From assembly GCA_031551045.1 (NCBI GenBank), contig JAVBOD010000006.1, positions 652-64,651 of the forward strand: a stretch of 64,000 nt of DNA, in the 5' to 3' direction. Positions 17,131 to 59,332 of the stretch are shown in pieces. Source of the DNA: Bacteroidales bacterium. Its GTDB lineage: Bacteria; Bacteroidota; Bacteroidia; Bacteroidales; UBA932. The translations under genes and the position numbers were made by a program. Each line of letters starts with the position of its first letter. Position 1 is the first letter of the stretch. The notes below the pieces were generated by a model, which saw only the letters and a program-made list of their open reading frames with translations, had not been told where the DNA came from and did no database searches.

Positions 17131-17385
17131 GGCTGTTCAAAAAGTATTTTTTCAACTTACGATGGTAAGATTACACCTCTTTTTCATTGCCGTCAGCTAA
17201 AGCTGACGGTATCCGGATGTCCTGAAATATTGCGCGCGAAGCAAGTTGTTTACTCAAAGGATATACTTGTTTCGCGCGCTTTTGCTGCTGTTTTCTTCTA
17301 TCCGTCAGCTAAAGCTGACGGCAATGAAATTGATGCTGACAACTTTCAAATTGTAAACTTCTCCGTAAGAGGTTGTTCAATTTTT
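17131..17385. repeat. composite palindromic intergenic repeat (families C and D)
   Basis: Two inverted copies of TTCATTGC-CCGTCAGCTAAAGCTGACGG (hairpins at 17190-17209 and 17292-17311) flank a third hairpin (GCGCGCGAAGCAAGT at 17232-17246 / ACTTGTTTCGCGCGC at 17265-17279). The left end GGCTGTTCAAAAA is shared with the element at 27801. Related copy at 52386-52520. Confidence 0.8.
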
Positions 17386-45964: not shown

Positions 45965-48274
45965 ATGTCATCATCATTAAATATAAAAGAGTTGGATTTT
46001 TGCGCGCACTTTCCTGCGGCAGACCAGGCGCTTATTGGCCGGGCATACGCTACAGCGGTAGATGCGTTAAAAAACCGTACGCGCGAAAACGGCGATCCTT
46101 TCGTGTTTCACGCATTAGCGGTGGCGCGCATGGCGGTCGAGGAAATGGGTTTGATGCCGTCGGTAGTGGCAGCTATTTTTCTGCACGAAGCTTTTCCGCT
46201 GAATAAGGACGAGAAAGCGGAAATGGAAGCGCGGCGCAATACGGGCAAAAGAGAAAGTAAAGAAAAAACAGCTTCGAAAGCGCTGAGCAATCAGGAGTGG
46301 CAGGAATGGTTAGATAAGGAAAGTAAACGTAAACGACAATTGATTGCCGCCATTGCAAAACAATACGGCGACGAAATTGCGCTGATGGTGCAGAGCCTGA
46401 ATAACATTGCCGAAATAGATCCTAAGAATACCAGCTTGCAAGCCGAAAATTTCCGTAAGCTCATTGTTTCCTATTCGCTGGACCCGCGCGTGACGATTGT
46501 AAAATTGTTAGACCGTTTGGAAGTAATGCGTTCGCTGCATTTCTTTCCAAAGTCGAAACAAGATAAAAAAGCGTTGGAAACGTCCTTATTGTATGTCCCG
46601 TTGGCGCATCAGTTGGGTTTGTATTATATAAAATCCGAGATGGAAGATTTGTCGATGAAGTTCATGCAACCCGATATGCACCGCCTCATTTCGAATAAGT
46701 TGAAAACAACAGTAGGCGAAAGGGAGCAATTTATCGCCGGCTTCATTAAGCCGATTGAAGAGGAATTGAAAAAGCAAGGTTTCCGTTACGAAATAAAAAG
46801 CCGTACAAAATCCGTTCATTCCATTTGGCAAAAAATGAAGGCGCAGAAAGTGGATTTCGAAGGGGTGTATGATGTTTTTGCCATTCGCATTATCCTCGAA
46901 ACGCCGCTCGAGCGCGAGAAAAGCGACTGCTGGAAAGTTTTTTCCATGGTGACGGATTGTTACGAACAGGACGCGAAGCGGATGCGCGACTGGCTTACGG
47001 TGCCGCGCCCCAGCGGCTACGAATCCTTACATGCTACGGTAAAAGTTCCTGATGGAAAAATGGTGGAAGTGCAAATCCGCAGTACGCGGATGGACGATAT
47101 TGCCGAACGCGGCTCTGCCGCACACTGGCGCTATAAAGGAGTGAAGCAGGAGCAGGGATTGCAGGCGTGGCTCGAGAATGTACGCCGTTTACTGGAGGCG
47201 CCCGAAGAAACGAACCCGGATGATGCGCGGAAATATTTTTCAGAATTTAAGTTGGACGAGGTAATTGTTTTTACGAAAGACGGCGATTTGCGGCGTTTAT
47301 CGTCGGGAGCGTCGGTACTCGATTTTGCGTTTGACGTGCATACCGGTCTCGGGCAAAAATGCGTGGGTGCTATTGTAAACGGCAAGAATGTTGCCATTAA
47401 AGAAAAATTGCATACGGGCGACGTGGTGGAAATTCTTACCTCGAAAAATCAAACGCCCAGCGAGGACTGGCTGAAGTGGACGGTGACCTCCAAGGCCCGC
47501 ACAAAGATTAAACAGCGCTTGCGCGAAGAAGCCGGCAAACAGGCGCAAACCGGCAAAGAAATTTTGGACCGGCGCATGAAAAACTGGAAGCTTAGCTTGA
47601 CGGACGAGCTGTTGGGTATCTTGTTGAAATACTTCAAATATAAACAAATCACCGATTTTTATACCGCTATTGCGGCCGGGAAAATTGATTTGGCCGATGT
47701 GAAAGAGCGTTTGTTAACTTGGCAGGAAACGCCCGAACCTGTCGAGCCCTCGTCACGGCCGGCCTCAAAACCCCTTGAAGAAAAAGCGGCCGATGCGTCC
47801 GATTATTTACTGATTGACGAACGGCTGAGCAATATGGGCTACAAATTGGCAAAATGCTGCAATCCCATATTCGGCGACGAGATTTTCGGTTTTGTCAGCG
47901 TGAAGGACGGTATTAAAATCCACCGGTTTTCGTGCCCCAATGCAAGCCGCCTGCTCGATAAGTATCCCTATCGCGTGCTGAAAGCCAAATGGCGGAACGA
48001 TGCGGCCACGAACGCTTTCCAAACCTTTATCAAAATCACGGGGTTTGATGAGCCGGGCCTCGTGAACGCCGTGGCCGAAGCGGTGTCCAAAGTGGGCGCT
48101 ACCTTGCGCGCTATCAACGTGGCCGAACGTTCCGGCACGTTCGACGGGCGGATTCAGGTGTCGGTAAACAGCCATAAACAGCTCGATTTATTATTATATC
48201 AATTGAAAAATATTCAAGGCATACAAAGAGTGATGCGCGTGGCTAACTACGAAAGGCGGGTGAAGAGAATATAG
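45965..48274 (+). CDS. rsh: long RelA/SpoT homologue with degenerate hydrolase motif (predicted synthetase-only, RelA-like)
   Basis: 769 aa. Synthetase motifs are intact (RTKSVHSIWQKM, GYESLHATV, VEVQIRSTRMDDIAERGSAAHWRYK). The HD signature reads LHEAFP instead of LHDVVED and is followed by a ~45-aa Lys/Glu-rich insertion. TGS and ACT-like domains are present. Confidence 0.9.
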   Translation: MSSSLNIKELDFCAHFPAADQALIGRAYATAVDALKNRTRENGDPFVFHALAVARMAVEEMGLMPSVVAAIFLHEAFPLNKDEKAEMEARRNTGKRESKEKTASKALSNQEWQEWLDKESKRKRQLIAAIAKQYGDEIALMVQSLNNIAEIDPKNTSLQAENFRKLIVSYSLDPRVTIVKLLDRLEVMRSLHFFPKSKQDKKALETSLLYVPLAHQLGLYYIKSEMEDLSMKFMQPDMHRLISNKLKTTVGEREQFIAGFIKPIEEELKKQGFRYEIKSRTKSVHSIWQKMKAQKVDFEGVYDVFAIRIILETPLEREKSDCWKVFSMVTDCYEQDAKRMRDWLTVPRPSGYESLHATVKVPDGKMVEVQIRSTRMDDIAERGSAAHWRYKGVKQEQGLQAWLENVRRLLEAPEETNPDDARKYFSEFKLDEVIVFTKDGDLRRLSSGASVLDFAFDVHTGLGQKCVGAIVNGKNVAIKEKLHTGDVVEILTSKNQTPSEDWLKWTVTSKARTKIKQRLREEAGKQAQTGKEILDRRMKNWKLSLTDELLGILLKYFKYKQITDFYTAIAAGKIDLADVKERLLTWQETPEPVEPSSRPASKPLEEKAADASDYLLIDERLSNMGYKLAKCCNPIFGDEIFGFVSVKDGIKIHRFSCPNASRLLDKYPYRVLKAKWRNDAATNAFQTFIKITGFDEPGLVNAVAEAVSKVGATLRAINVAERSGTFDGRIQVSVNSHKQLDLLLYQLKNIQGIQRVMRVANYERRVKRI

Positions 48275-48322
48275 GTATTAATTTTTTTGTGTTACGATAA
48301 CCATTATTTAACCAATATATCT

Positions 48323-49390
48323 ATGAAAAATATTTTTACTTATGCATTTTTGCTCCTATTATTGGGGTCTTGTTCTCCCAAGTTGGCAACGAATATCTTG
48401 AAAACTTATCCGCCGTTGGATGCCGCTGCTTACGTATCGGTTTACAGTAATTCGAATCAGGTTCCCTTATCTTCAGAGGCATTAGGAGCTGTGAATATTC
48501 ATGATTCAGGCCTTTCTACACACTGTGATTCGGTAACGGTTTTTACAATGGCGATGAATGAGGCGAGAAAAATAGGTGGCAATGCCTTATTGATTACCGA
48601 GCACCACCGCCCCTCATTTTGGGGTAGTTCATGCCATCAAATCGAGGCTACCATCCTGAAAGTATCGGAGACACCGCAAAACACCTTAGCATTTTCCGAT
48701 ACAATGGCCCGGGAAATGCCTAATGCCTATAATACAATGACAGGTATGATGGCAGAGAAACATGCCGCACGAGAACGCTTATTGCCCCGTATGACATGGG
48801 CTGTTGATGCCGGCTATAGTTGGCGGACAGCCAAAATCAGAGAGGATATAAGTTCTTATGCAATATCATTTTACAAAAAGATGGACGCCGGTTTTACATG
48901 GGATGTTTCCGGGGCATATTTTTTTGCAGACCAACACGGGCTTCAGTTTTCCTTTCAAAATTATCGAGCGTCACATCATGAGTTAGCAACCGATACGGAA
49001 ACCGGTATCTCCGGAATGCTGGAAATTTCCGATTGCATTAATTATATAGGGGCTGCGTACGTTTTCCGCGGAGCAACACGAAATACGAAATGGTTATTTG
49101 ATGTTTCGATAGGGCTTGGCTATATCGGTTATATAAGCAACATGGGCTTTGCGGGAGAGCATACTAAAGCAACAGGCGCCAATGTCGGCTTGCAAACATC
49201 ATTCGGGGTGGAATATATGATTTCACCGGTAATCGGGATAGGTATGAATTTGAAAGCAACCAGTGGGACACTTAGCCAACTTACTTATGAGGAAAACGGT
49301 GTAAAGAGAACGGAAAAATTTAAGGATGAGGAAAGAGAAGGCCTCGGACTGATTAATGCGTTGGCCGGAATTCGGATACATATCAAATAG
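48323..49390 (+). CDS. lipoprotein / outer-membrane protein of unknown function
   Basis: 355 aa from the ATG at 48323 (track start is TTG). Lipobox LLGSC. The C-terminal half has an alternating beta-strand-like pattern. Confidence 0.55.
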   Translation: MKNIFTYAFLLLLLGSCSPKLATNILKTYPPLDAAAYVSVYSNSNQVPLSSEALGAVNIHDSGLSTHCDSVTVFTMAMNEARKIGGNALLITEHHRPSFWGSSCHQIEATILKVSETPQNTLAFSDTMAREMPNAYNTMTGMMAEKHAARERLLPRMTWAVDAGYSWRTAKIREDISSYAISFYKKMDAGFTWDVSGAYFFADQHGLQFSFQNYRASHHELATDTETGISGMLEISDCINYIGAAYVFRGATRNTKWLFDVSIGLGYIGYISNMGFAGEHTKATGANVGLQTSFGVEYMISPVIGIGMNLKATSGTLSQLTYEENGVKRTEKFKDEEREGLGLINALAGIRIHIK

Positions 49391-49720
49391 TCGTTAAATT
49401 TTTCCTAGTAAATAGTAAAAAATACAATCTTTTATTTACAAAAAAAATAGTGTATTGAATATTAGTAAATTATAAAATAAGTTGATATTTTTTTATTCTA
49501 ACACTTGTTAATCTAAAAAATATTTTATATACTTGCACATTGAATCTAAATTAGCTTACAAAAGATTCGCTTTTCTAAAAAAAAAAACCGTGTTTGAGTA
49601 GTTGAAGGGAGAAAAGATAAGAGGAGCCTTTCCTGTATTTTGTTCTGTATGTATGGTTAACAAAAACACGGCATATTGCCGGAAAAAATATAAAATGAAC
49701 GAGGCCGTTTGAAAAGTCTT

Positions 49721-49781
49721 TTTTAACCGCTAAGTTCGCAAAGAAAGCGCGAAGGACATCATTGCGAGGAACGAAGCAATC
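49721..49781. repeat. repeat remnants (family D inverted fragment plus family B-variant solo arm)
   Basis: TTTTAACCGCTAAGTTCGCAAAGAAAGCGCGAAGG, then CATCATTGCGAGGAACGAAGCAATC. These explain the spurious 123-aa antisense ORF 49575-49946. Confidence 0.7.
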
Positions 49782-50051
49782 TCTGATGTTTTTCGAACAT
49801 GGAGTGTTGAATTTTGGAAAAAGGAAATTAAATGATATAGTAGTAATTGAAATCCAGAAGGAAGAAAAGGGGCGGAAATTGTGAAGCTCGGTAAAAGTCC
49901 AACAACCCACCCCTACTTCCTTTCTATAAAAAAGGAGGTGCCCCAAAGATACATAATTTTTTTAATATGCAGCACTTGCTGTGTGGGCTGTTGAAATGAT
50001 AGATACGGCCCGCTATAGTTATTTATTTAAACAATTTAAAATTAAAAGATT

Positions 50052-50240
50052 ATGAAAAAGTTAGCATTAAGTCAAATGGAACAAGTGAATGGTGGTATAA
50101 CAATGTCTGAGGAAAAATGTAATAAAGCTGCAAAAGTAGCTACTGTTGCGAGTATTTTAAGCTGTTTTAGTGCACTTATCTTTGCTCCAACTGCTATTGG
50201 ATTAGCTGTAGGCTCATGGATAGGTGGATGCTATGATTAA
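50052..50240 (+). CDS. double-glycine-leader precursor peptide (candidate class II bacteriocin)
   Basis: 62 aa. The leader MKKLALSQMEQVNGG has hydrophobic residues at -4, -7, -12 and -15 and GG at -2/-1. The predicted 47-aa core ITMSEEKCNKAAKVATVASILSCFSALIFAPTAIGLAVGSWIGGCYD is amphipathic to hydrophobic and has 3 Cys. A C39-ABC exporter lies 3 kb downstream. Confidence 0.75.
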   Translation: MKKLALSQMEQVNGGITMSEEKCNKAAKVATVASILSCFSALIFAPTAIGLAVGSWIGGCYD

Positions 50241-50276
50241 ATCATTAATGAATAATGTCCCAATCTATAAAATAAT

Positions 50277-50672
50277 ATGATGTCAAAAGTAAATATTAAA
50301 AATGGATGTTTATTCTCGTTTCAACCAATTGATGTTTTTATAGGAGACGAACTTATTCGTGTCAAAAACAATCAAATAAGAACGATTGAGGTGCCTATGG
50401 GAAACTATACAATTAAAGCACAGCAATTTTGGTCGTCAGGTTACGAACAAATGAATATAAAGACAGAGATAGCTTCTATAGTTATCCGTAGAAGAGTCCC
50501 TGAGTTTGTGCGAGCATTAGCAATCGGCTTCTTAATAATGGTTTTTGTTCTATTTTCTTTTTCTATGATAAGCATTTCTCTGACTATGATTGCGACTACC
50601 TCTATTGCCGTACTTAGTTTGTTAGATAGCATATTTGCTAAAAAACACTATTTCAAGATACGACCGGCATAA
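50277..50672 (+). CDS. small membrane protein (soluble N-terminal beta-rich domain plus 2 TM); candidate immunity/accessory protein
   Basis: 131 aa, 36 nt after the peptide gene. C-terminal TM pair ALAIGFLIMVFVLFSFSMISISLTMIATTSIAVLSLL. No family recognised. Confidence 0.55.
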   Translation: MMSKVNIKNGCLFSFQPIDVFIGDELIRVKNNQIRTIEVPMGNYTIKAQQFWSSGYEQMNIKTEIASIVIRRRVPEFVRALAIGFLIMVFVLFSFSMISISLTMIATTSIAVLSLLDSIFAKKHYFKIRPA

Positions 50673-50697
50673 ACAACGTCTCTCTAATCATTATTTG

Positions 50698-50754
50698 AAT
50701 ATACTGATATTTATTTATTACAATATATTGAGATTAATAGGATATCAGTATATT
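50698..50754. terminator. 13-bp perfect inverted repeat between the first cassette and the decayed second peptide gene (attenuator/terminator or binding site)
   Basis: AATATACTGATAT (50698-50710) and ATATCAGTATATT (50742-50754) with a 31-nt AT-rich spacer. Confidence 0.35.
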
Positions 50755-50762
50755 AAAAAATC

Positions 50763-50963
50763 ATGAAAAAGTAGCATTAAATCAAATGGAACAAGTGAAT
50801 GGTGGTGATGGTTGGGCATTTTGGGATAAAACATGTGCCCTTTGGGGGAGCAAGTCGTATACTTAAAATAGTGTCCTATGTAACTCCTGCCACCGCAGCC
50901 TTGGCGACAGCTGCAGACATAACTTGCGCTACTTACGCCATTGTCAGAGTCGCAACTTCGTAG
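50763..50963 (+). pseudogene. second GG-leader peptide gene, disrupted by two single-nucleotide frameshifts
   Basis: The leader DNA matches 50052-50096 except for a 1-nt deletion (AAGTTAGC to AAGTAGC, giving MKK-stop) and one substitution. Reading resumes at ATGGAACAAGTGAATGGTGGT. A second shift occurs at the G5 run (50844-50848). The reconstructed core is DGWAFWDKTCALWGASRILKIVSYVTPATAALATAADITCATYAIVRVATS. Confidence 0.55.
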
Positions 50964-50971
50964 TTTGAAAT

Positions 50972-51164
50972 ATGCATTATGAAATGATTAACTAAGTTAA
51001 ATTGGCTCTTGTGGTTTCTATTGGTACTTGTATGCGTGTGTTTCTTTATTTTTGATAACAATAGTATTTACTATAAAATATCACTAGTATGCTGTGCTAT
51101 GATACTACTCTTCATAGCTGTTAAGAATACAATGGAATTTGTAAAAAACATACGCAAAAAATAA
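50972..51164 (+). pseudogene. possible frameshifted small 2-TM protein (decayed immunity-type gene)
   Basis: ATG at 50972 gives MHYEMIN-stop. The adjacent frame (50988-51164) is open and reads ...LNWLLWFLLVLVCVCFFIFDNNSIYYKISLVCCAMILLFIAVKNTMEFVKNIRKK, with no ATG near its 5' end. Confidence 0.3.
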
Positions 51165-51269
51165 TAAGACCATCACACTTGGATGATTTTAAAGTAGGAG
51201 AACTGGTTGCATAAAATAATTACTCCTGCAACCAGTTTTTCTATAACTATTATTTGATTATTATTGATT

Positions 51270-51470
51270 ATGGCCAAGAAAACAGATTATCTTCCTGCTG
51301 GATTTTATCGTGGACTGCTCATATTTTGGATATTATATTCCATAGCAAATATCGTTCGTTTATTTTTGCAAGAAGCGTTTTCTATTGACATTGTTCTTCT
51401 TATGATTTGTGGCGGATGCGGCATTCTGTCTTGTATTTTTACGTTACAAAAAATCAAAAAATCCGATTAA
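51270..51470 (+). CDS. 66-aa two-TM hydrophobic protein
   Basis: MAKKTDYLPAGFYRGLLIFWILYSIANIVRLF...LLMICGGCGILSCIFTL from the ATG at 51270 (track start is TTG). No family recognised. Confidence 0.45.
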   Translation: MAKKTDYLPAGFYRGLLIFWILYSIANIVRLFLQEAFSIDIVLLMICGGCGILSCIFTLQKIKKSD

Positions 51471-51492
51471 ACTTTTAATGTGTAAAATGTTT

Positions 51493-51642
51493 ATGAAAAA
51501 AGTTATTCTAACTGCAATGATAGCGCTATTATTAATAGCGGCCATGCTAATGCTTCTCGAAATAACAACCAATAAGTATGTCATTACTTCAATTTATTTT
51601 GAGTTGGCTATTCTGTTGGTTATCACAATATATAAAAAGTAG
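51493..51642 (+). CDS. ~49-aa two-TM hydrophobic protein
   Basis: MKKVILTAMIALLLIAAMLMLLEITTNKYVITSIYFELAILLVITIYKK. Alternative ATGs at 51478 and 51487. Confidence 0.4.
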   Translation: MKKVILTAMIALLLIAAMLMLLEITTNKYVITSIYFELAILLVITIYKK

Positions 51643-51704
51643 CAAGATTCATGCTCACGAACCCTACAAATATTCATAAATCGCTATACTAAACTTTATT
51701 ATTT

Positions 51705-52349
51705 ATGAAGTCGTTTTTAGAAGAACTTTATAATTGCAAAAAAAGCTATTTTTTTTTGGGCTTGATAGTGTTTCTGCTATTTATTAGCATCATTCAGAAA
51801 AAGCTGTTCTTTACCGAAAATTTGTATTACCAAACCTACGGTGAGCAACTGAGCATAGAGCGTATCGATGAAATGTGGGAAGTAGGCAAACAATGGGAAT
51901 GGATCGGCTATTTGCTGCTGCCCGTCATCATTCTATTGCGCGTGTCGTTTACAGCTCTTTGCCTTTACACGGGTTTGTTTTTTGGTAGCCATCAAGATAA
52001 ATCGTTCGGAGCCTGCTTCAACATCGCCCTAAAGGCCGATATGGTGTTTGCTGTGGCAGCGGCTGGTAATCTTATTTATTTTCTTTTTGCAGGAGCCGCT
52101 ACGCTTGCAGATTTAAGCATCTCGCCGTTTTCGCTCTTATTTTATGTCTATCACCCGCAAATGCCGGTGTATCTCAATTATCCGTTAGCCTTGGTCAATG
52201 TGTTCGAAATTCTCTATTGGCTGCTGTTGGCGGCGTTTGTAGCCTACGCATTCCGGAAAACGTTTGCAAAAGGGATGGAATTTGTGTTTCAAACCTACGG
52301 TGTCGGCCTGCTATTGTGGGTGCTGGTCATGATTTTAATTACGATGTGA
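51705..52349 (+). CDS. 214-aa polytopic membrane protein of unknown function
   Basis: About 5 TM segments. No CPBP/Abi motifs were seen. Last gene of the AT-rich part of the island. Confidence 0.6.
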   Translation: MKSFLEELYNCKKSYFFLGLIVFLLFISIIQKKLFFTENLYYQTYGEQLSIERIDEMWEVGKQWEWIGYLLLPVIILLRVSFTALCLYTGLFFGSHQDKSFGACFNIALKADMVFAVAAAGNLIYFLFAGAATLADLSISPFSLLFYVYHPQMPVYLNYPLALVNVFEILYWLLLAAFVAYAFRKTFAKGMEFVFQTYGVGLLLWVLVMILITM

Positions 52350-52385
52350 TACCTAATGATCTTCCAATTGTAAACCGGTATTTTG

Positions 52386-52520
52386 CCGTCTGTTTTAGCT
52401 GACGGACAATTGGCAAGTATGTTATACAAGTGCGGAGCAATTATTTTTTTTGAGATACAGACGGTATTCCGCGCTCAGTTCATCGGCTGTATTTTGTAAT
52501 CCGTCAGCTAAAGCGGACGG
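52386..52520. repeat. family C repeat locus (degenerate and intact CCGTCAGCTAAAGC(T/G)GACGG hairpins)
   Basis: CCGTCTGTTTTAGCTGACGG-ACAATTGG (52386-) and CCGTCAGCTAAAGCGGACGG-CAATTGAATG (52501-52520). The upstream CAATTGTAAAC matches 17347. Confidence 0.75.
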
Positions 52521-52557
52521 CAATTGAATGTATATAAAATTTGAATTTTAAATCTTT

Positions 52558-53061
52558 ATGCTGAAAATTATTATTCGTATTGCGCTTATAGCAGCTATTG
52601 CGGCTTTAGCCGTGGTTGTGGTATTAAAGCTAAACCATAAAAAAAAAGTGGCGGAACAAATCGCTTTGCTGCCCGGTTTTGCTTTTCCATTAGTTCCTTC
52701 GGGGAATATTGCTACGGACAATTTACCGGCAAAAACCACCTTTGTTATTTTCTTCAATCCGGGCTGTGGACACTGCGAGTACGAAGGACGCGAGCTCAGC
52801 CGCGCGCAGGAAGCTTTTAAAGAGGCTACGGTGCTTATGGTTAGCACCGCCCCGCGCGACAGTATTATCGACTACCGCCACCGGTATGGATTCGACACTA
52901 TTCCGCATTTTTACACGGCTATAGATAGCACCTATATGAGCCTGCCGCTGTTCGACGTAAAATCTATTCCCACCGTATTTATTTACGACACCGAACGTCG
53001 CTTACGGAAAACATTTTTCGGCGAAGTAAAAATAGAAGCCCTGTTATCTTACATTCCATAA
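52558..53061 (+). CDS. membrane-anchored thioredoxin-fold protein (TlpA/redoxin-like) with CGHC active site
   Basis: 167 aa. N-terminal TM anchor (IALIAAIAALAVVVVL), then the thioredoxin motif FFNPGCGHCEYE. Ends 6 nt before the ABC exporter gene. Confidence 0.8.
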   Translation: MLKIIIRIALIAAIAALAVVVVLKLNHKKKVAEQIALLPGFAFPLVPSGNIATDNLPAKTTFVIFFNPGCGHCEYEGRELSRAQEAFKEATVLMVSTAPRDSIIDYRHRYGFDTIPHFYTAIDSTYMSLPLFDVKSIPTVFIYDTERRLRKTFFGEVKIEALLSYIP

Positions 53062-53067
53062 ACAAGC

Positions 53068-55149
53068 ATGCAGCCTCTTACTTTAAAACATATCGAAAAA
53101 ACACTGGTACGTCAGCATAACCAATCGTGGTGCGGCTTAGCGTGCTTGGCATCTATTGTAAAATATTTTGGAGGCAACATTCCGCAGGAAAAACTGCAAG
53201 CACAAAGCGGGACATCGCTTACCGGCACCACCTTGTTAGGTTTGTATCAAGCAGCTAACAACATAGGTTTAGCAGCCGAAGGCTTCGAAGCAGAAATTGA
53301 AAACCTTCAGGAAATTACCGCTCCGGCTATTTTACATGTAACCTTAGACGACGGGTTGGAACACTATGTGGTTTGTTACGGGCATTCACCAAGCGGTTTT
53401 GTGATTGGCGATCCGGCAAAAGGCATCGCTATTATGACGGAAAAGGATGTTGAGCATTTCTGGAAAAGTAAAAAACTATTATTGGTTGAAAAAGGAGAAA
53501 AATTTCAAACAACGAGCGATGTAGCCAAACATAAACAGGCATGGTTAAAATCGTTGTTAAAGCCCGATATATCCATTCTTTCCATTATCGCCGTACTTGG
53601 CATGGTGGTGTCGGTTGCCGGTATTTCGCTGGCCATCTTTTCGCAAAAACTCATCGACCAGATTTTACCGGCTAAAGATTTTCAAAAATTGTGGGTGGGT
53701 GTGATCGTTTTAGGCTTGCTGTTATTGGCTAAAAATGGCTTGGGCTATCTTCGTGGCGTATTAGTGGCGCGGCAAAGTAAAGATTTTTCGAACCGTATTG
53801 TCGGGAGTTTCTACAATCTGATTTTATATCTTCCCAAATCATTTTTCGACAGTCTGAAAACCGGTGAAATTACTGCCCGTCTGAACGATGCTTCGCGCAT
53901 CCAGCGGACGATAAACTATGCTTCAGGTACTTTACTCGTCGATATATTAACGGTTGTTATCTGCACCGTTTTACTATTCAACTATTGGTGGGCAAGCGGC
54001 GTGGTCACGCTCATCGGCGCGTTACTTTTTGCACTTATATTTATGGAATACAGTAAAAAAATTATTGCCGGACAGCGTAGCGTGATGATGTCGTATGCCG
54101 GCGCCGAAAGTAATTTTTTCGATACGGTACAGGGCGTAGAAGTCATTAAGTCGAATAATAAGGAAGACTTTTTTACAAACTACACCAAGCATATTTACGC
54201 TACCTTTCAAACATCCATTTATGATTTGGCACTACTGGGAAACCGCGTGGGATTCCGTGTAGAAAATGTAGGAACATTAGCTATCCTCGGCGTCATTGTT
54301 TTCAGTTCTTTTGCCGTATTGCACGATGTGTTGAGTTTAGGAGCGTTAGTCGCCGTATTATCATTGTCAGCCTCTGTTATTAATTCGTCTGCATCTTTAT
54401 CGGGCGCTTATATAACGCTGCAAGAAGCAAAAGTAGCCTATGACCGGCTTTATGAGTTTGTAAGTATGGACAAAGAAAGCGATGAGGTCGTACCTCGAAA
54501 AGAAACCGAAACAATAGAAACATTGCAGGTGAAAAATATTCGCTTCCGCTTTCCCGGGCGTCCGTTACTTTTAAATGATGTAAACTTTACCGCCCATAAA
54601 GGAAAGCTCACAGCTATTCTGGGTGAAATCGGTTGTGGGAAAAGTACATTGTTACAAATTTTACAACGATTCTATGACGTAGAAGCCGGTGAAATAGTAA
54701 TGGATGACATTCCGTGGAAATCCTTTCCGCTAAACGATTGGCGTGAAAGAATAGGCGTTATGCCGCAACACATTAAACTATTCAATGCATCACTCATTGA
54801 AAATATTTGCCTGACAAACGATGAAGAAAATATCAAGAGATGTTTGGATTTTTGTGAGCAATTAGGTATCGGTATTTATTTTAATAACTTGCCATTAGGT
54901 ACTCTTACCCGAGTGGGGGAGGACGGCATCAATCTATCGGGTGGGCAACGCCAATTGGTAGGGCTGTGCCGCGCTTTATATAAAAATCCCGCTATCCTTC
55001 TATTGGACGAACCGACAAACAATATGGACAAATCTACCATTCAGTTTGTGTGGAATTTATTGGAGCGTGAAAAACATCAACGCATTTGTGTACTGGTTAC
55101 GCACAATGAAGTATTGGCTGCAAAAGCGGAACTGGTGATTAATCTATAA
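53068..55149 (+). CDS. peptidase-C39-domain ABC transporter (bacteriocin/GG-peptide processing and export ATPase-permease)
   Basis: 693 aa. C39 triad context is QSWCGLACL (Cys), EHYVVCYG (His) and GDPAKG (Asp). Six-TM ABC membrane domain. Walker A GEIGCGKST, signature LSGGQRQ, Walker B ILLLDEPT, H-loop VLVTHN. Confidence 0.92.
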   Translation: MQPLTLKHIEKTLVRQHNQSWCGLACLASIVKYFGGNIPQEKLQAQSGTSLTGTTLLGLYQAANNIGLAAEGFEAEIENLQEITAPAILHVTLDDGLEHYVVCYGHSPSGFVIGDPAKGIAIMTEKDVEHFWKSKKLLLVEKGEKFQTTSDVAKHKQAWLKSLLKPDISILSIIAVLGMVVSVAGISLAIFSQKLIDQILPAKDFQKLWVGVIVLGLLLLAKNGLGYLRGVLVARQSKDFSNRIVGSFYNLILYLPKSFFDSLKTGEITARLNDASRIQRTINYASGTLLVDILTVVICTVLLFNYWWASGVVTLIGALLFALIFMEYSKKIIAGQRSVMMSYAGAESNFFDTVQGVEVIKSNNKEDFFTNYTKHIYATFQTSIYDLALLGNRVGFRVENVGTLAILGVIVFSSFAVLHDVLSLGALVAVLSLSASVINSSASLSGAYITLQEAKVAYDRLYEFVSMDKESDEVVPRKETETIETLQVKNIRFRFPGRPLLLNDVNFTAHKGKLTAILGEIGCGKSTLLQILQRFYDVEAGEIVMDDIPWKSFPLNDWRERIGVMPQHIKLFNASLIENICLTNDEENIKRCLDFCEQLGIGIYFNNLPLGTLTRVGEDGINLSGGQRQLVGLCRALYKNPAILLLDEPTNNMDKSTIQFVWNLLEREKHQRICVLVTHNEVLAAKAELVINL

Positions 55150-55212
55150 GAATAATCAACTAAGAACAAAAGCCGGTAAAAGCAATTCTTTAGTGGGAAA
55201 TGACTGTAAATT
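55093..55212. repeat. direct repeat copy 1 (3' end of the ABC gene plus downstream flank)
   Basis: 117/120 identical to 56137-56256, with three T/C differences. Weaker similarity continues to ~55230. Confidence 0.9.
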
Positions 55213-55250
55213 CTTCTTAGTCCCTTTTTTATTAATTGTTTAAAAATAGC

Positions 55251-56135
55251 ATGAAATATCAATTATTAACAGTTCTTCTCTTGAACGTATTTTTCTCAGT
55301 CGGTTTAACAGCACAAATAATAATTGCCGACGCTGAAACAAAGGAGGTTTTTCCCTACGTTACAGTAATCTTCCTTAAAGAACAAAAGGGAATCTATACT
55401 GACGAACAGGGCAGATTTATTGTACCTACAGAATATCACGAAAAGGATAGTATTCTCCTGCAAATGATGGGGTATCATGACTTACGGACAATCATTGCCT
55501 CCTTATCCGGAACTGTTTATTTAACCCCAAAAACGTATGTACTGAACGAAGTAGTAATACGCCCTCTAAAAGTACATACAAGAATAGTGGGAGATCTAAA
55601 AAAAAGAAGAAGAGAAGTGTTTGGAAGGTGGTATGATAAAGCAAGTGGAAAACCCGTGTTTGACCCAACTATTATAGCAACCTATGTCAGTAGCAATAAA
55701 TATCAGTTGTGTCCCATCGAAAAATTGTATTATCGCTACCAAGTGCAAGATAAGTCGGTAAGTTTTATAGTACGCCCACAAATTTACAGTGTAACCAGCG
55801 ACGGAAAACCCGGTGTATCCTTGCTAAACAAAAGTCAAGTGATAGAACTGCGGGGTCAAGGGATATTGGAAGTCAACATTCGAGATGAATGGATTTCCCT
55901 GCCTCCCGAAGGAATATTTGTGGCGATGGAAATCATCCAAGAGATTAATAACAAGAGTGAGGAAAGTTCGCATGAAGAGCCATTTCCAATCTTTCCTGTT
56001 ACATCTCGGAAGTTGGAAACATTTTTTATTGATATTAATAAAATATATGAATGGCAACTTATCGGTTTTCCAGAAAATAATTCACACATAAAATATCCGT
56101 TTGCCATAGGCATTAGAGAAAATAATAAGAATTAG
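55251..56135 (+). CDS. secreted protein with carboxypeptidase-regulatory-like N-terminal domain, C-terminal part unknown
   Basis: 294 aa from the ATG at 55251. Signal peptide LLTVLLLNVFFSVGLTAQ, then IIIADAETKEVFPYVTVIFLKEQKGIYTDEQGRFIV (CarboxypepD_reg-like). AT-rich. Bracketed by the 120-nt direct repeat. Confidence 0.65.
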   Translation: MKYQLLTVLLLNVFFSVGLTAQIIIADAETKEVFPYVTVIFLKEQKGIYTDEQGRFIVPTEYHEKDSILLQMMGYHDLRTIIASLSGTVYLTPKTYVLNEVVIRPLKVHTRIVGDLKKRRREVFGRWYDKASGKPVFDPTIIATYVSSNKYQLCPIEKLYYRYQVQDKSVSFIVRPQIYSVTSDGKPGVSLLNKSQVIELRGQGILEVNIRDEWISLPPEGIFVAMEIIQEINNKSEESSHEEPFPIFPVTSRKLETFFIDINKIYEWQLIGFPENNSHIKYPFAIGIRENNKN

Positions 56136-56136
56136 G

Positions 56137-56193
56137 CTGGTTACGCACAATGAAGTACTGGCTGCAAAAGCGGAACTGGTGATTAATCTATAA
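56137..56193 (+). pseudogene. orphan 3' fragment (last 18 codons plus stop) of a C39-ABC transporter gene
   Basis: Translates to LVTHNEVLAAKAELVINL-stop, identical to the C-terminus of the 53068-55149 product. The one nucleotide difference is synonymous (TTG to CTG). Confidence 0.7.
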
Positions 56194-56256
56194 GAATAAT
56201 CAACTAAGAACAAAAGCCGGTAAAAGCAATTCTTTAGCGGGAAATGACTGCAAATT
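56137..56256. repeat. direct repeat copy 2
   Basis: See copy 1. It starts 1 nt after the stop codon of the 294-aa gene. Confidence 0.9.
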
Positions 56257-56307
56257 ATTGCTTAGTCCATTTTTTTGATAAATATGTCTTATCGCGAATA
56301 CCAACAA

Positions 56308-56339
56308 TTTGCTATTTCAATATAAAAGTACTACATTTG
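56308..56339 (+). promoter_or_regulatory. candidate Bacteroidota sigma-A promoter of the kor operon
   Basis: -33 TTTG (56308-56311) and -7 TACATTTG (56332-56339) with 20-nt spacing. Confidence 0.4.
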
Positions 56340-56421
56340 CGATGCGAAAAATTACATTTTTTTGAAAAAAGCTTGTAGTTTGCTTTCATATAGTAATCAA
56401 ATCATAAAAAAGAAAAAAAAT

Positions 56422-56643
56422 ATGGCACTTAAAGGAGCAATAGTGGTGGATAACGAAAAATGCAAAGGTTGCAGCGTGTGTGTTGTCAACTGTCCCACCA
56501 AAGTGATCGCATTGGCAAAGGAAGTGAATGCGAAGGGATATAATTATGCCTATATGCTGAATCCCGAAGCATGTACCGGTTGTACGAACTGCGCAACGGT
56601 TTGTCCCGATTCGTGCATTACGGTTTATCGCGTAAAAGTATAA
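56422..56643 (+). CDS. korD: 4Fe-4S ferredoxin-type delta subunit of 2-oxoacid:ferredoxin oxidoreductase
   Basis: 73 aa from the ATG at 56422. Two CxxCxxCxxxCP clusters (CKGCSVCVVNCP, CTGCTNCATVCP). Confidence 0.8.
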   Translation: MALKGAIVVDNEKCKGCSVCVVNCPTKVIALAKEVNAKGYNYAYMLNPEACTGCTNCATVCPDSCITVYRVKV

Positions 56644-56745
56644 ACCAATTCAAAGATTCAACCATTCCACGATTTCATCATTTTTGAATCGTTGAATTTT
56701 GGAATCATTGAATTATTGAATTTAAAAATCTGAAAATTAAATAAT

Positions 56746-57828
56746 ATGGCAGAGAAAAAACTCCTGAAAGGAAATGAAGTGATTGCGCTGGCAGCTATCC
56801 GTTGCGGTTGCGATGGCTATTTCGGATATCCGATAACCCCCCAATCCGAAATTATGGAAACGCTCATGGAAGAAAAACCATGGGAAACTACCGGTATGGT
56901 AGTATTGCAAGCCGAAAGCGAAACCTCGTCTATCAACATGTTGTATGGCGGCGCCGCCACCGGCAAAAAAGTAATGACCTCGTCGAGCAGCCCCGGTATC
57001 AGTTTGATGACCGAAGGCTTGAGCTACTTAGCCGGAGCGGAACTTCCGTGTTTGGTGGTAAACGTAGTGCGCGGCGGCCCGGGCTTAGGAACTATCCAAC
57101 CGGCGCAAAGCGACTATTTTCAAGCGACTAAAGGCGGCGGACATGGCGACTATCATATGATTGTGCTTGCGCCTGCATCGGTACAGGAAATGAACGACTT
57201 TGTGGATGTAGGTTTCGAACTCGCTTTCAAATACCGCAATCCTGCGCTGATTTTGGCTGACGGCGTGATTGGCCAAATGATGGAAAAAGTAGAACTGAGC
57301 CCCGAAAAACCGCGTTGGACGGAAGCGGAAATTCAAAAAATGTCGGGCGACTGGGCTTGCCTCGGAAAAACGAAAGACCGTGCGCGCCACGTCATCACCT
57401 CGCTGGCATTGGAAGCCGACGTGCAGGAACGCTTCAATTTAAAACTGATAGAGAAATACAATAAAATTCGTGAAAACGAAACACGTTTCGAGAGAATCAA
57501 CTGCGACGATGCCGAATACCTGATTGTGGCCTATGGCGCCATGTCGCGTATTTGCCAGGAAACCGTAGAAATGGCACGCGCGCAAGGCATCAAACTCGGT
57601 TTGTTGCGCCCCATCACCCTGTTCCCGTATCCCACAAAAGCGATTCAAGCATTGGTGCCGCAACTGAAAGGCGTACTTTCGGTAGAATTGAGTGCCGGAC
57701 AAATGGTAGAAGATGTTCGCTTGGCGGTAAACGGCAAGGTGCCGGTAGAACATTACGGCCGCTTGGGCGGTATGGTTCCCGATCCGGGACAAGTATTGGA
57801 TGCGTTGAAAAAGACGTTTTCGTTATAA
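56746..57828 (+). CDS. korA: 2-oxoglutarate/2-oxoacid:ferredoxin oxidoreductase alpha subunit
   Basis: 360 aa. N-terminal LKGNEVIALAAIRCGCDGYFGYPITPQSEI is typical of the POR/KOR alpha domain. Confidence 0.9.
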   Translation: MAEKKLLKGNEVIALAAIRCGCDGYFGYPITPQSEIMETLMEEKPWETTGMVVLQAESETSSINMLYGGAATGKKVMTSSSSPGISLMTEGLSYLAGAELPCLVVNVVRGGPGLGTIQPAQSDYFQATKGGGHGDYHMIVLAPASVQEMNDFVDVGFELAFKYRNPALILADGVIGQMMEKVELSPEKPRWTEAEIQKMSGDWACLGKTKDRARHVITSLALEADVQERFNLKLIEKYNKIRENETRFERINCDDAEYLIVAYGAMSRICQETVEMARAQGIKLGLLRPITLFPYPTKAIQALVPQLKGVLSVELSAGQMVEDVRLAVNGKVPVEHYGRLGGMVPDPGQVLDALKKTFSL

Positions 57829-57858
57829 TAGTTTATCCATTTCATAAAAAGAAAGACT

Positions 57859-58620
57859 ATGGACATAAAAGACATCATAAAACCAGAAAATAAAGTGTAC
57901 AGCAAAACGCCGGTGTTGACCGACACGGTAATGCACTATTGCCCCGGTTGCACCCATGGCGAAGTACACAAACTCATTGCCGAAGTTATCGAAGAAATGG
58001 GTATCCAGGAGAAAACAGTCGGCGTGTCACCGGTAGGTTGTGCCGTATTTGCATACAACTACCTCGATATCGATTGGGAACAGGCTGCTCACGGACGCGC
58101 TCCGGCGGTGGCCACGGCTATCAAACGCCTGAATCCCGATAAGTATGTATTCACTTACCAAGGCGATGGCGACCTGGCCTCTATCGGTACGGCCGAAATC
58201 ATGCACGCCTGCAACCGTGGCGAGAACATAGTGGTTGTTTTCATCAACAATGCCATCTACGGCATGACAGGCGGACAAATGGCCCCGACTACCTTGATAG
58301 GACAAGTAACCGCCACTACGCCTTACGGACGTAATGCAGAGCTAAACGGCCACCCGTTGCGCATTACCGAACTCATTGCACAATTGAAAGGCACTTGCTA
58401 CGTAACCCGCCAATCGGCTCAAACGCCGGCAGCTGCCCGCAAAGCGAAAAAAGCGATTCGCAAAGCATTCGAAAATTCGGCCTTGAAAAAAGGAACTTCA
58501 TTTATAGAAGTAGTGGGCACTTGTAATTCCGGTTGGAAGCTGACTCCGGTAGATTCCAATAAATGGATGGAAGAAAACATGTTCCCCGAATATCCGTTGG
58601 GAGATATAAAAGACGAGTAA
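57859..58620 (+). CDS. korB: 2-oxoacid:ferredoxin oxidoreductase beta subunit (TPP-binding)
   Basis: 253 aa with YCPGCTHGEV and the TPP motif QGDGDLASIG...NNAIYGMTGGQ. Confidence 0.9.
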   Translation: MDIKDIIKPENKVYSKTPVLTDTVMHYCPGCTHGEVHKLIAEVIEEMGIQEKTVGVSPVGCAVFAYNYLDIDWEQAAHGRAPAVATAIKRLNPDKYVFTYQGDGDLASIGTAEIMHACNRGENIVVVFINNAIYGMTGGQMAPTTLIGQVTATTPYGRNAELNGHPLRITELIAQLKGTCYVTRQSAQTPAAARKAKKAIRKAFENSALKKGTSFIEVVGTCNSGWKLTPVDSNKWMEENMFPEYPLGDIKDE

Positions 58621-58635
58621 GAGCCCCACTCCCGA

Positions 58636-58777
58636 CCTCTCCCCAAAAGGGAGAGGAGATATGAGAGGCTTTTAATAATTAATTGCTACTTTAAAAAATG
58701 AGCAAAAAATAAAATCAGAGTCACAGGCCCATACGCTCCCTTCTCCTTTGGAGAGGGTTGGGGAGAGGCTTTTAATT
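58636..58777. repeat. pair of family E hairpin repeats inside the kor operon
   Basis: CCTCTCCC-CAAAA-GGGAGAGG (58636-58656) and CCCTTCTCC-TTTG-GAGAGGG (58738-58757). Each is followed by GAGAGGCTTTTAAT (58663-58676 and 58764-58777). Confidence 0.75.
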
Positions 58778-58786
58778 TGAAATAAT

Positions 58787-59332
58787 ATGAAAGAAGAAAT
58801 TATCATAGCAGGATTCGGAGGACAAGGCGTTCTCTCGATGGGAAAAATATTGGCTTACTCGGGTATCATGCAAGACATGGAAGTAACATGGATGCCTTCG
58901 TACGGCCCCGAAATGCGCGGCGGCACAGCCAACGTAACAGTCGTATTGAGCAGCAACCGCATCAGTTCGCCGATTGTGAACAAATGCGACACGGCTATCA
59001 TCCTTAACCAACAATCGTTGGATAAGTTTGAAAACACGGTACGCCCGGGCGGCATGCTATTGTACGATCCGAACGGTATTACCAAGCCGCCGGTACGCAA
59101 AGACATTACAGTTTGCAAAATCGAAGCGGCCGAAGAAGCCGCCAAGATGGGCAACGCCAAAGCCTACAACATGGTGGTGTTGGGAGCATACCTGAAAAAA
59201 CGCCCCGTAGTGAAAATGGAAAACGTGATTGCCGGTTTGAAAAAATCGTTGCCCGAACGCCACCACAAACTCATCCCGATGAACGAACAGGCCATTCAAC
59301 GTGGTATGGAAGCGGTGCAAGAGGTGAAATAA
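58787..59332 (+). CDS. korC: 2-oxoacid:ferredoxin oxidoreductase gamma subunit
   Basis: 181 aa. IIIAGFGGQGVLSMGKILA is typical of the POR gamma domain. Confidence 0.9.
   Translation: MKEEIIIAGFGGQGVLSMGKILAYSGIMQDMEVTWMPSYGPEMRGGTANVTVVLSSNRISSPIVNKCDTAIILNQQSLDKFENTVRPGGMLLYDPNGITKPPVRKDITVCKIEAAEEAAKMGNAKAYNMVVLGAYLKKRPVVKMENVIAGLKKSLPERHHKLIPMNEQAIQRGMEAVQEVK

Follow-up and report, generated by a model that had tools for sequence, protein, structure and literature searches.

What does a run of short, AT-rich genes ending in a peptide exporter produce, and how could its product leave a cell with two membranes when no outer-membrane partner is encoded beside it? Bacteroidetocins are the only validated toxins of Bacteroidota that carry a double-glycine (GG) leader, and the way they exit from the diderm cell with neither a membrane-fusion protein (MFP) nor TolC is unsolved. 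The same question is raised by a 6.9-kb locus (49391–56277) in a stretch of 64,000 nt from the Bacteroidales bacterium assembly GCA_031551045.1 (contig JAVBOD010000006.1, positions 652 to 64,651), which we refer to as the window and in whose numbering all coordinates are given. The locus encodes an intact GG-leader peptide, a set of small membrane proteins, a five-transmembrane (five-TM) protein, a thioredoxin-fold (Trx) protein and a peptidase-containing ATP-binding cassette (ABC) transporter (PCAT). Considering its sequence relationships, we regard the locus as probably a class II (unmodified, GG-leader) bacteriocin or microcin-like system that uses bacteroidetocin-type machinery of Bacteroidota.

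The precursor peptide and its predicted processing machinery

The intact precursor is a 62-aa open reading frame (ORF) on the + strand (50052–50240), made up of a 15-aa leader, MKKLALSQMEQVNGG, and a 47-aa core, ITMSEEKCNKAAKVATVASILSCFSALIFAPTAIGLAVGSWIGGCYD. The core is hydrophobic (grand average of hydropathy (GRAVY) +0.82) and has three Cys residues, at positions 8, 23 and 45. An earlier note on this DNA, written from its letters alone, had singled out this ORF for its GG leader and its hydrophobic three-Cys core, and both were confirmed. A search of 5.8 billion proteins with the 62-aa peptide returned only the peptide itself.

Three further genes on the + strand form a module downstream. 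The first (51705–52349) encodes a 214-aa protein with five hydrophobic segments, for which the AlphaFold2 (AF2) model is all-helical (predicted local distance difference test score, pLDDT, 93.9). Neither Pfam nor NCBIfam matches its family, in which the invariant residues are Tyr, Trp, Gly and Pro, and a Foldseek comparison of the model with the PDB found no similar fold (best E 1.5). We considered a DsbB/VKOR-like redox role and rejected it, as the family lacks a conserved Cys pair and the PDB comparison found nothing. The second gene (52558–53061) encodes a membrane-anchored Trx protein of 167 aa with a CGHC motif, which matches Pfam AhpC-TSA (2.8e-6) as well as Pfam Thioredoxin and is ResA-like over residues 4–166 according to NCBIfam. 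The C-x-H-C motif, which is of the DsbA/PDI type, is found in 47/61 Trx homologues, and the protein is presumed to be a periplasmic disulfide-forming enzyme for the peptide. The third gene (53068–55149) encodes the 693-aa PCAT, with matches to Peptidase_C39 (2.6e-30), ABC_membrane (5e-27) and ABC_tran (1.8e-29). NCBIfam places it among peptide cleavage/export ABC transporters, and it aligns with PCAT1 (PDB 4RY2) at E 8.5e-85, with the Cys, His and Asp of the C39 domain aligned. The earlier note had described a Trx-fold gene and a C39-ABC gene only 6 nt apart, with Cys/His/Asp intact, which the Pfam matches and the 4RY2 alignment bear out; the four Pfam families that it had proposed to look for (Peptidase_C39, ABC_membrane, ABC_tran and AhpC-TSA) were all matched. 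The TM, Trx and PCAT genes are full-length, their catalytic and ATP-binding motifs are intact, and their C-termini match those of relatives.

The likeness to bacteroidetocin loci drawn in the earlier note proved apt, as the TM, Trx and ABC genes are homologous to those of a genuine bacteroidetocin A (Bd-A) locus. As defined by Coyne et al (2019, PMC6671954), a bacteroidetocin region consists of four genes, encoding a five-TM protein, the peptide, a thiol oxidoreductase and a PCAT. Nothing beyond these four is required for the toxin to be made, even with E. coli as the host, and activity depends on the TM and the oxidoreductase genes, neither of which confers immunity (PMC6671954). The producers kill themselves, being without immunity, and the oxidoreductase was proposed to form the disulfide, since Bacteroides has no general disulfide machinery (PMC6671954). 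For comparison, we took the Bd-A and bacteroidetocin B (Bd-B) sequences from Supplementary Fig. 2 of PMC6671954 and pulled Bd-A loci from metagenomes (L076; loci are numbered L001 and so on). L076 encodes, in order, a TonB-dependent receptor, a TM protein of 220 aa, Bd-A, a Trx protein of 171 aa (CDFC) and a PCAT of 732 aa. The window's TM protein is 25% identical to its L076 counterpart (BLASTP E 7e-11), and a profile of the TM family matches the Bd-A TM protein with an hhalign probability of 98.6% (E 8e-16, 202 columns), so the 214-aa protein appears to be a distant orthologue of the bacteroidetocin "TM protein". The Trx proteins are 25% identical (BLASTP E 3e-8), and the PCATs are 34% identical over the full 693 aa (E 5e-132). 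No member of the window's clade is markedly closer than the others to the Bd-A proteins (PCAT ~34.5%, TM ~25%), and by these alignments the window's machinery belongs to a sister clade, to which Bd-A is the outgroup.

Related loci, their cargo and candidate immunity genes

Relatives were retrieved through the 214-aa TM protein rather than through the peptide. At E ≤ 1e-3 the TM family has 1,629 cluster representatives (among 1.84 billion), and it was found in 61 loci of species-representative Bacteroidota genomes, three of whose titles name other phyla or an unlabelled assembly. The host groups include Prolixibacteraceae, Draconibacterium, Mariniphaga, several Cytophagales, Chitinophaga, Flavobacteriales, Saprospiraceae and gut-type metagenome-assembled genomes (MAGs) of Prevotellaceae and Bacteroidales, with the closest TM protein (54% identity) in a Prevotellaceae MAG. 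A plasmid collection held one distant TM homologue (Flammeovirga) and no match to Bd-A. The order TM, Trx, PCAT is nearly invariant: in a non-redundant set of 62 loci, TM is present in 62, Trx in 59 and PCAT in 58. The TM and Trx genes abut or overlap in relatives, and the window's PCAT is 39–69% identical to those of the clade (median 43%). Other recurrent neighbours are DUF2059 (19 loci), HTH_3 regulators (4), M16 peptidases, and DUF5687 with an ABC ATPase. We also observed a UDPGT/EryCIII-like glycosyltransferase between Trx and PCAT in 8/62 loci (e.g. L031 4887–6287), which suggests a glycosylated (glycocin-like) subgroup of the same system.

The cargo of these loci is of one general kind. 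We identified 79 GG peptides in 46 loci (one to six per locus), and in 75 cases the peptide gene precedes TM. Of the 79 leaders, 76 have a length of 15 aa, with the consensus MK[KE]LSFEQME-x-[VI]-x-GG, and MKKLALSQMEQVNGG agrees with it. Leaders are conserved and cores very variable in sequence; the cores have a median length of 48 aa, a median GRAVY of +1.01 and a Gly+Ala content of ~31%. Exactly two Cys are present in 57 of the 79 peptides, and at either end of the core the median distance to the Cys is 5 residues. The window's core is 33–50% identical to peptides of L016, L021 and L026, with which it has ATV..AS[IV].S[CA]F...PTA[IL]G in common. The earlier note had taken the core peptides to be of an unrecognised type; for the intact one this did not hold, and judged by these likenesses it is not an orphan type, being a member of a widespread class of hydrophobic two-Cys GG peptides.

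Immediately after the peptide lies a gene for a 131-aa protein (50277–50672, + strand) with a β-rich N-terminal domain, two TM helices and a basic tail. It has no match in Pfam or NCBIfam, and in a single-sequence AF2 model its N-terminal domain was of low confidence and unsuitable as a structure query. Homologues are encoded immediately after those peptides of L016/L017, L021 and L026 that resemble the window's, and L052 has a look-alike. We considered the 131-aa protein the best immunity candidate because it is co-inherited with the peptide and has this build, and it is likely to be the cognate immunity protein of the 62-aa peptide. Both genes of the pair are intact and full-length. More broadly, 24/46 loci have, no more than 300 nt after a peptide, a small ORF with two or more TM helices, and in other loci of the clade DUF5687 and an ABC ATPase take the place of the small two-TM ORFs.

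A second GG-leader peptide gene (50763–50963, + strand) has decayed, as the earlier note had observed, describing a near-identical leader and an unrelated core. Its leader copy, from 50763, is 93% identical in DNA to the first over 41 nt (repeat D4), and the gene is frameshifted twice. First, a T is missing after ATGAAAAAGT near 50772 (−1), which brings a TAG at codon 4. Second, a +1 indel lies in a run of five G near 50845, ~75 nt beyond the first. As the two indels compensate each other, the start frame is also the distal frame, and only the ~75-nt middle part is out of frame. The reconstructed product is MKKVALNQMEQVNGG followed by DGWAFWDKTCALWGGASRILKIVSYVTPATAALATAADITCATYAIVRVATS, and its core (DGWAFWDKTCALWGG...ITCATYAIVRVATS) is unrelated to the intact one and weakly resembles a peptide of L029 (30% identity over 43 aa). 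Both indels are also present in the Logan assembly of run SRR23967709 (contig L001), which is 100% identical to the locus over 2,340 nt, indels included, and possibly comes from the same reads. A similar case was observed in a related Bacteroidales MAG (L008 133–450), where a GG peptide gene is split by a frameshift, with the leader ending in ...NVSGGGKF* and the core in a different frame. Broken cargo genes may be common in loci of this clade, or they may be MAG assembly errors.

Three two-TM ORFs follow the pseudogene on the + strand. Those at 51009–51164 (51 aa) and 51264–51470 (68 aa), each with two TM helices and a basic tail, are orphan immunity candidates of uncertain coding status: neither has a homologue among the fetched loci, and neither is gene-called on the Logan contig. 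The third (51487–51642; 51 aa, beginning MFMKKV) is gene-called there and is also an immunity candidate. Its sole homologue (L029 1548–1703) comes after the L029 peptide with the weak likeness to the pseudogene core, and it is possibly the partner of the decayed peptide. Because of this double correspondence with L029, we distinguish two peptide/immunity cassettes, and the two-TM ORFs after the pseudogene are best read as left-over immunity-type genes of the second, frameshifted one. The five to six small hydrophobic ORFs of the earlier note are therefore present but are not a single array, consisting of the 131-aa protein, the 3′ half of the pseudogene, the three two-TM ORFs and the five-TM machinery protein. 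What had seemed a large immunity array comes down to two cassettes, one of them decayed, next to a conserved machinery gene.

The earlier note had also remarked that the locus has no HlyD/TolC component, regulator or mobility gene. We found no HlyD/TolC, regulator, integrase or transposase gene from the RelA/SpoT gene upstream to the ferredoxin/2-oxoacid oxidoreductase genes downstream, and no HlyD-family membrane-fusion protein is encoded within 45965–59332. The absence was confirmed, but the lack of HlyD/TolC and of a regulator is not unusual: published bacteroidetocin regions likewise lack both (PMC6671954), which makes it the norm of the family, and no HlyD, MFP or TolC family recurs in the 62 related loci or among their Pfam-annotated neighbours.

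Composition, repeats and the history of the locus

The locus is flanked on the 5′ side by a RelA/SpoT gene (45965–48274) and an ORF with a weak outer-membrane protein (OMP) β-barrel match (48287–49390), and on the 3′ side, from 56362 on, by genes for a 4Fe-4S ferredoxin and a 2-oxoacid:ferredoxin oxidoreductase. Every gene between these flanks is on the + strand, in the order peptide(s), small ORFs, TM, repeat element, Trx, PCAT and a 299-aa ORF. The 661-nt spacer upstream of the peptide (49391–50051; G+C 0.31) is presumed to hold the promoter of the peptide cassette, and its final ~40 nt recur upstream of the second leader (repeats D2/D3). Within this spacer, 49560–49990 contains hairpin-forming sequence (CCGTGTTT...AAACACGG and CATTGCGAGGAACGAAGCAATC), present as a single copy in the window, which we take to resemble intergenic repeats common in Bacteroidales. 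Promoter and terminator scans of the locus gave uninformative output, and an Rfam scan of the window matched no RNA family.

Could the whole 6.9-kb stretch be one recently acquired genomic island? The window has a G+C content of 0.436, and 1-kb windows outside the locus average 0.444 (standard deviation 0.036). The earlier note had estimated about one-third G+C at 49.4–52.3 kb and 55.2–56.1 kb and proposed horizontal acquisition. The estimate holds for the peptide and small-ORF part (49391–51704; 0.32) and for the stretch with the 299-aa gene (55150–56361; 0.356), but not for the five-TM gene (0.425). This gene and the whole TM-Trx-ABC module (0.423, with G+C at third codon positions of 0.42–0.52) are within the range of the window. 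As high A+T is limited to the cargo/immunity part and the 299-aa gene, transfer of the island as a whole is weakly supported. The position between housekeeping genes and the patchy distribution of relatives across Bacteroidota would agree with such a transfer. Against it stand the mosaic composition, the lack of an integrase and of att-like ends for the whole stretch, and the make-up of the AT-rich part, in which short hydrophobic ORFs and spacers account for the bias on compositional grounds. Recent acquisition in one piece is therefore doubtful, and the composition looks more like a mosaic of native-like machinery, exchangeable cargo and a separate insertion of the 299-aa gene. Contigs were also scanned with RelA/SpoT for syntenic relatives, and none were found. 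Elsewhere in the window there are two further AT-rich patches, at 38.0–38.9 kb (~0.33; with a 256-aa ORF on the − strand) and at 60.5–61.5 kb (~0.30; with a strong negative AT skew).

Two repeats mark the locus. The first is a palindromic element of ~140 nt (52383–52523) in the 208-nt gap between TM and Trx (52350–52557). Its terminal arms, TTGCCGTCAGCT..AGCTGACGG, are 24 nt long and 92% complementary and enclose a GC-rich palindrome; the hairpin predicted for its RNA has a folding energy of −60.9 kcal/mol (z −5.8). The element recurs at 17190–17322. We considered whether this gap, where a bacteroidetocin gene would be expected, holds the remains of one, and rejected the idea: three-frame translation of the gap gave no GG leader, and the gap is occupied by the repeat element with its second copy at 17.2 kb.

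The second is a 138-nt direct repeat. Copy 1 (55093–55230) covers the last 18 codons of PCAT, its stop and ~80 nt downstream, and copy 2 (56137–56274) still encodes LVTHNEVLAAKAELVINL*, the last 18 residues and the stop. The copies are 92% identical and near-perfect over the first ~115 nt, and the Logan contig stops inside copy 1. The two copies bracket a gene (55236–56135, + strand; G+C 0.367) for a secreted protein of 299 aa that carries a signal sequence and a CarboxypepD_reg-like domain (Pfam 4.7e-8), and no integrase is present. This gene is likely a later, separate insertion that regenerated the 3′ end of PCAT, and its link to the system is uncertain. In L039, a homologue that is 28% identical over 228 aa (E 4e-17) adjoins a GG peptide. 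Beside GG-peptide/PCAT loci, proteins whose N-domain is CarboxypepD_reg-like were observed in L076 (2971–5286), L002 (6383–8596), L039 (3267–4217) and the window; two of these are TonB-dependent receptors, that of L076 lying 24 nt upstream of TM, and two are 300-aa proteins. As such genes are abundant in the phylum, this could be chance.

These same features bear on whether the locus is a decaying, non-functional remnant. Its second peptide gene is frameshifted twice, a repeat element has been inserted between TM and Trx, insertion of the 299-aa gene has duplicated the 3′ end of PCAT, and the promoter consensus is not found upstream of the peptide. However, the first peptide, the 131-aa protein, TM, Trx and PCAT are all full-length, with catalytic and ATP-binding motifs intact and C-termini as in relatives, and copy 1 of the 138-nt repeat reconstitutes the 3′ end of PCAT. 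We consequently judged it improbable that the locus as a whole is dead.

Proposed function and comparison with known systems

If the locus is a bacteriocin or microcin-like system, the leader of the 62-aa precursor would be recognised by the C39 domain of PCAT, and the peptide would be cut after Gly15 and pumped across the inner membrane, as the homology with characterised transporters leads us to infer. The anchored CGHC protein would then oxidise the core. The likeliest bond is Cys8–Cys45, considering that one Cys near each end is a family-wide feature and that the same reasoning has been published for bacteroidetocins; it would staple both ends of a hydrophobic helical peptide. The five-TM protein would be a required accessory, as genetically demonstrated for bacteroidetocin B only, and export would proceed with no dedicated membrane-fusion or TolC partner. 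Once released, the peptide probably kills related bacteria by acting on the membrane. This is proposed because of its composition and the weak similarity of its family to Bacteriocin_IIc and MccV, so that toxin activity is ascribed to it from sequence. The 131-aa two-TM protein would likely confer cognate immunity, and the later two-TM ORFs would be orphan immunity genes of the second cassette.

Several observations weigh against this reading. The window's peptide has an odd number of Cys (3), and it matches no bacteriocin or microcin model of Pfam or NCBIfam at E ≤ 1, including PF10439 and the TIGR01847-type GG-leader model that the earlier note had proposed to try. The strict Bacteroidetes promoter consensus (TTTG..TAnnTTTG) is missing upstream of the peptide, one of the two peptide genes is dead, and the palindromic element could disturb co-transcription of TM and Trx. 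A periplasmic location of the Trx protein is suggested solely by its N-terminal anchor and ResA-like homology. In addition, since bacteroidetocin producers have no immunity, an immunity gene is not a given for this machinery, and the literature searched holds no activity, processing or expression results for the window's peptide or for members of its clade.

The exported peptide might instead serve as a signal, or be a hydrophobic peptide of some other kind, secreted or inserted into a membrane, that uses the same processing machinery. Pheromones such as ComC are also exported by way of GG leaders and PCATs, and ComA is among the PDB matches; the lack of killing reports and of a matching bacteriocin model would fit as well. 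Against this, no sensor kinase or response regulator is present in or near the locus. Furthermore, the clade combines variable cores and conserved leaders with multi-copy cassettes, adjoining small two-TM proteins or ABC-2-type pumps and a decayed paralogue, which are hallmarks of toxin/immunity diversification. A non-toxin role is thus rather improbable, and a class II bacteriocin or microcin-like system is the reading that we prefer.

More tentatively, TM-Trx-PCAT may be a phylum-wide route, free of MFP and TolC, for making and releasing hydrophobic peptides stapled end to end by a disulfide. The five-TM protein would then be the missing component (e.g. a chaperone or hand-over partner between PCAT, the oxidoreductase and the outer membrane), and the peptide would form, together with the 131-aa protein, a new family of toxin and immunity protein acting on the cytoplasmic membrane and not on BamA. 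We hold this fuller proposal to be possible but less likely than not.

In this locus and its clade, the three machinery proteins handle a further class of cargo, opposite in chemistry to bacteroidetocins, which is hydrophobic and Gly/Ala-rich with a Cys near each end. This offers a comparative handle on the roles of the five-TM protein and the oxidoreductase, and the clade is a pool of candidate narrow- or broad-spectrum peptides. The yield from the window itself is modest: one intact peptide/immunity candidate pair from an uncultured or poorly represented Bacteroidota genome. Relative to the literature searched, what is new, as far as sequence comparison goes, is a sister clade of the bacteroidetocin machinery with hydrophobic end-Cys cargo and immunity-type genes, that is, a variant of a known system.

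Bacteroidetocins, which are classed as IIf (Coyne et al, 2019, PMC6671954; Matano et al, 2021, PMC8546649), are the closest known relatives. The 19 published peptides were collected by loose criteria (15–16-aa GG leader, mature peptide of 35–53 aa, at least 2 Cys), and the window's peptide is within these limits with its 15-aa leader, 47-aa core and 3 Cys. The two systems share a five-TM protein, a GG peptide with a 15-aa leader and at least two Cys, an anchored thiol oxidoreductase and a PCAT, together with the lack of MFP/TolC and of a regulator, and both belong to the phylum Bacteroidota. They differ in gene order, as the published order is TM, peptide, oxidoreductase, PCAT, whereas peptide genes of the window's clade lie upstream of TM and are often multi-copy. 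They also differ in their accessory proteins, which are only ~25% (TM), 25% (Trx) and 34% (PCAT) identical, and in the immunity-like two-TM genes, which the window carries and bacteroidetocin producers do not. The cargo differs most in chemistry: the window's is hydrophobic and Gly/Ala-rich, whereas Bd-A and Bd-B are polar, aromatic and cationic (GRAVY −0.64 and −0.85). When the intact core was compared with bacteroidetocins, as the earlier note had suggested, it gave no alignment to Bd-A or Bd-B at E ≤ 10, the other 17 of the 19 published peptides lying outside this comparison. Five genera from the related loci were looked for among the published regions in the supplementary files of PMC6671954, and none were present. 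It is therefore very unlikely that the peptide is a true bacteroidetocin, belonging with Bd-A to Bd-D and lethal through BamA binding: homologous machinery, a leader, core length and Cys count of the right size and a Bacteroidota host speak for it, but the core is unrelated in sequence and chemistry, the peptide gene is not between TM and Trx, the machinery falls in the sister clade with Bd-A outside, and immunity-like genes are present. The target is presumably not BamA.

The clade's peptides also come close to other class II models. The best of them scores 26.9 bits against Pfam PF10439 Bacteriocin_IIc (threshold 27.1), one passes TIGR01847 (16.1 bits, threshold 15.7) and one matches Pfam MccV at E 1.3e-3; members other than the window's are also near the TIGR03949 class IIb and E492-type microcin models. 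Large surveys already list many unvalidated GG peptides in the phylum (PMC12219008, PMC12648112), including 690 "putative class II microcins" from Bacteroidaceae, kept separate from the 19 bacteroidetocins (PMC12219008), and 4,494 class II bacteriocin sequences of Bacteroidota in the IIBacFinder catalogue (PMC12648112).

With class II microcins of Enterobacteria such as microcin V, which is exported by CvaA/CvaB/TolC, the locus has in common a 15-aa GG leader, a PCAT, small hydrophobic or Gly-rich unmodified peptides and, by prediction, disulfides and small membrane immunity proteins. In contrast to them, it has no membrane-fusion gene, encodes five-TM and Trx-fold proteins instead, and its peptide fits no microcin model. 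The Gram-positive class IIb/IIc bacteriocins (PF10439; TIGR03949) likewise have a GG leader, a Gly-rich hydrophobic core and small membrane immunity proteins, whereas the host of the window is diderm and its accessory proteins are unlike theirs. PedC, a Trx-like accessory protein, secures disulfide formation in pediocin, and we know of no Gram-positive class IIb/IIc family that is characterised by one Cys near each end, as the peptides of the window's clade are.

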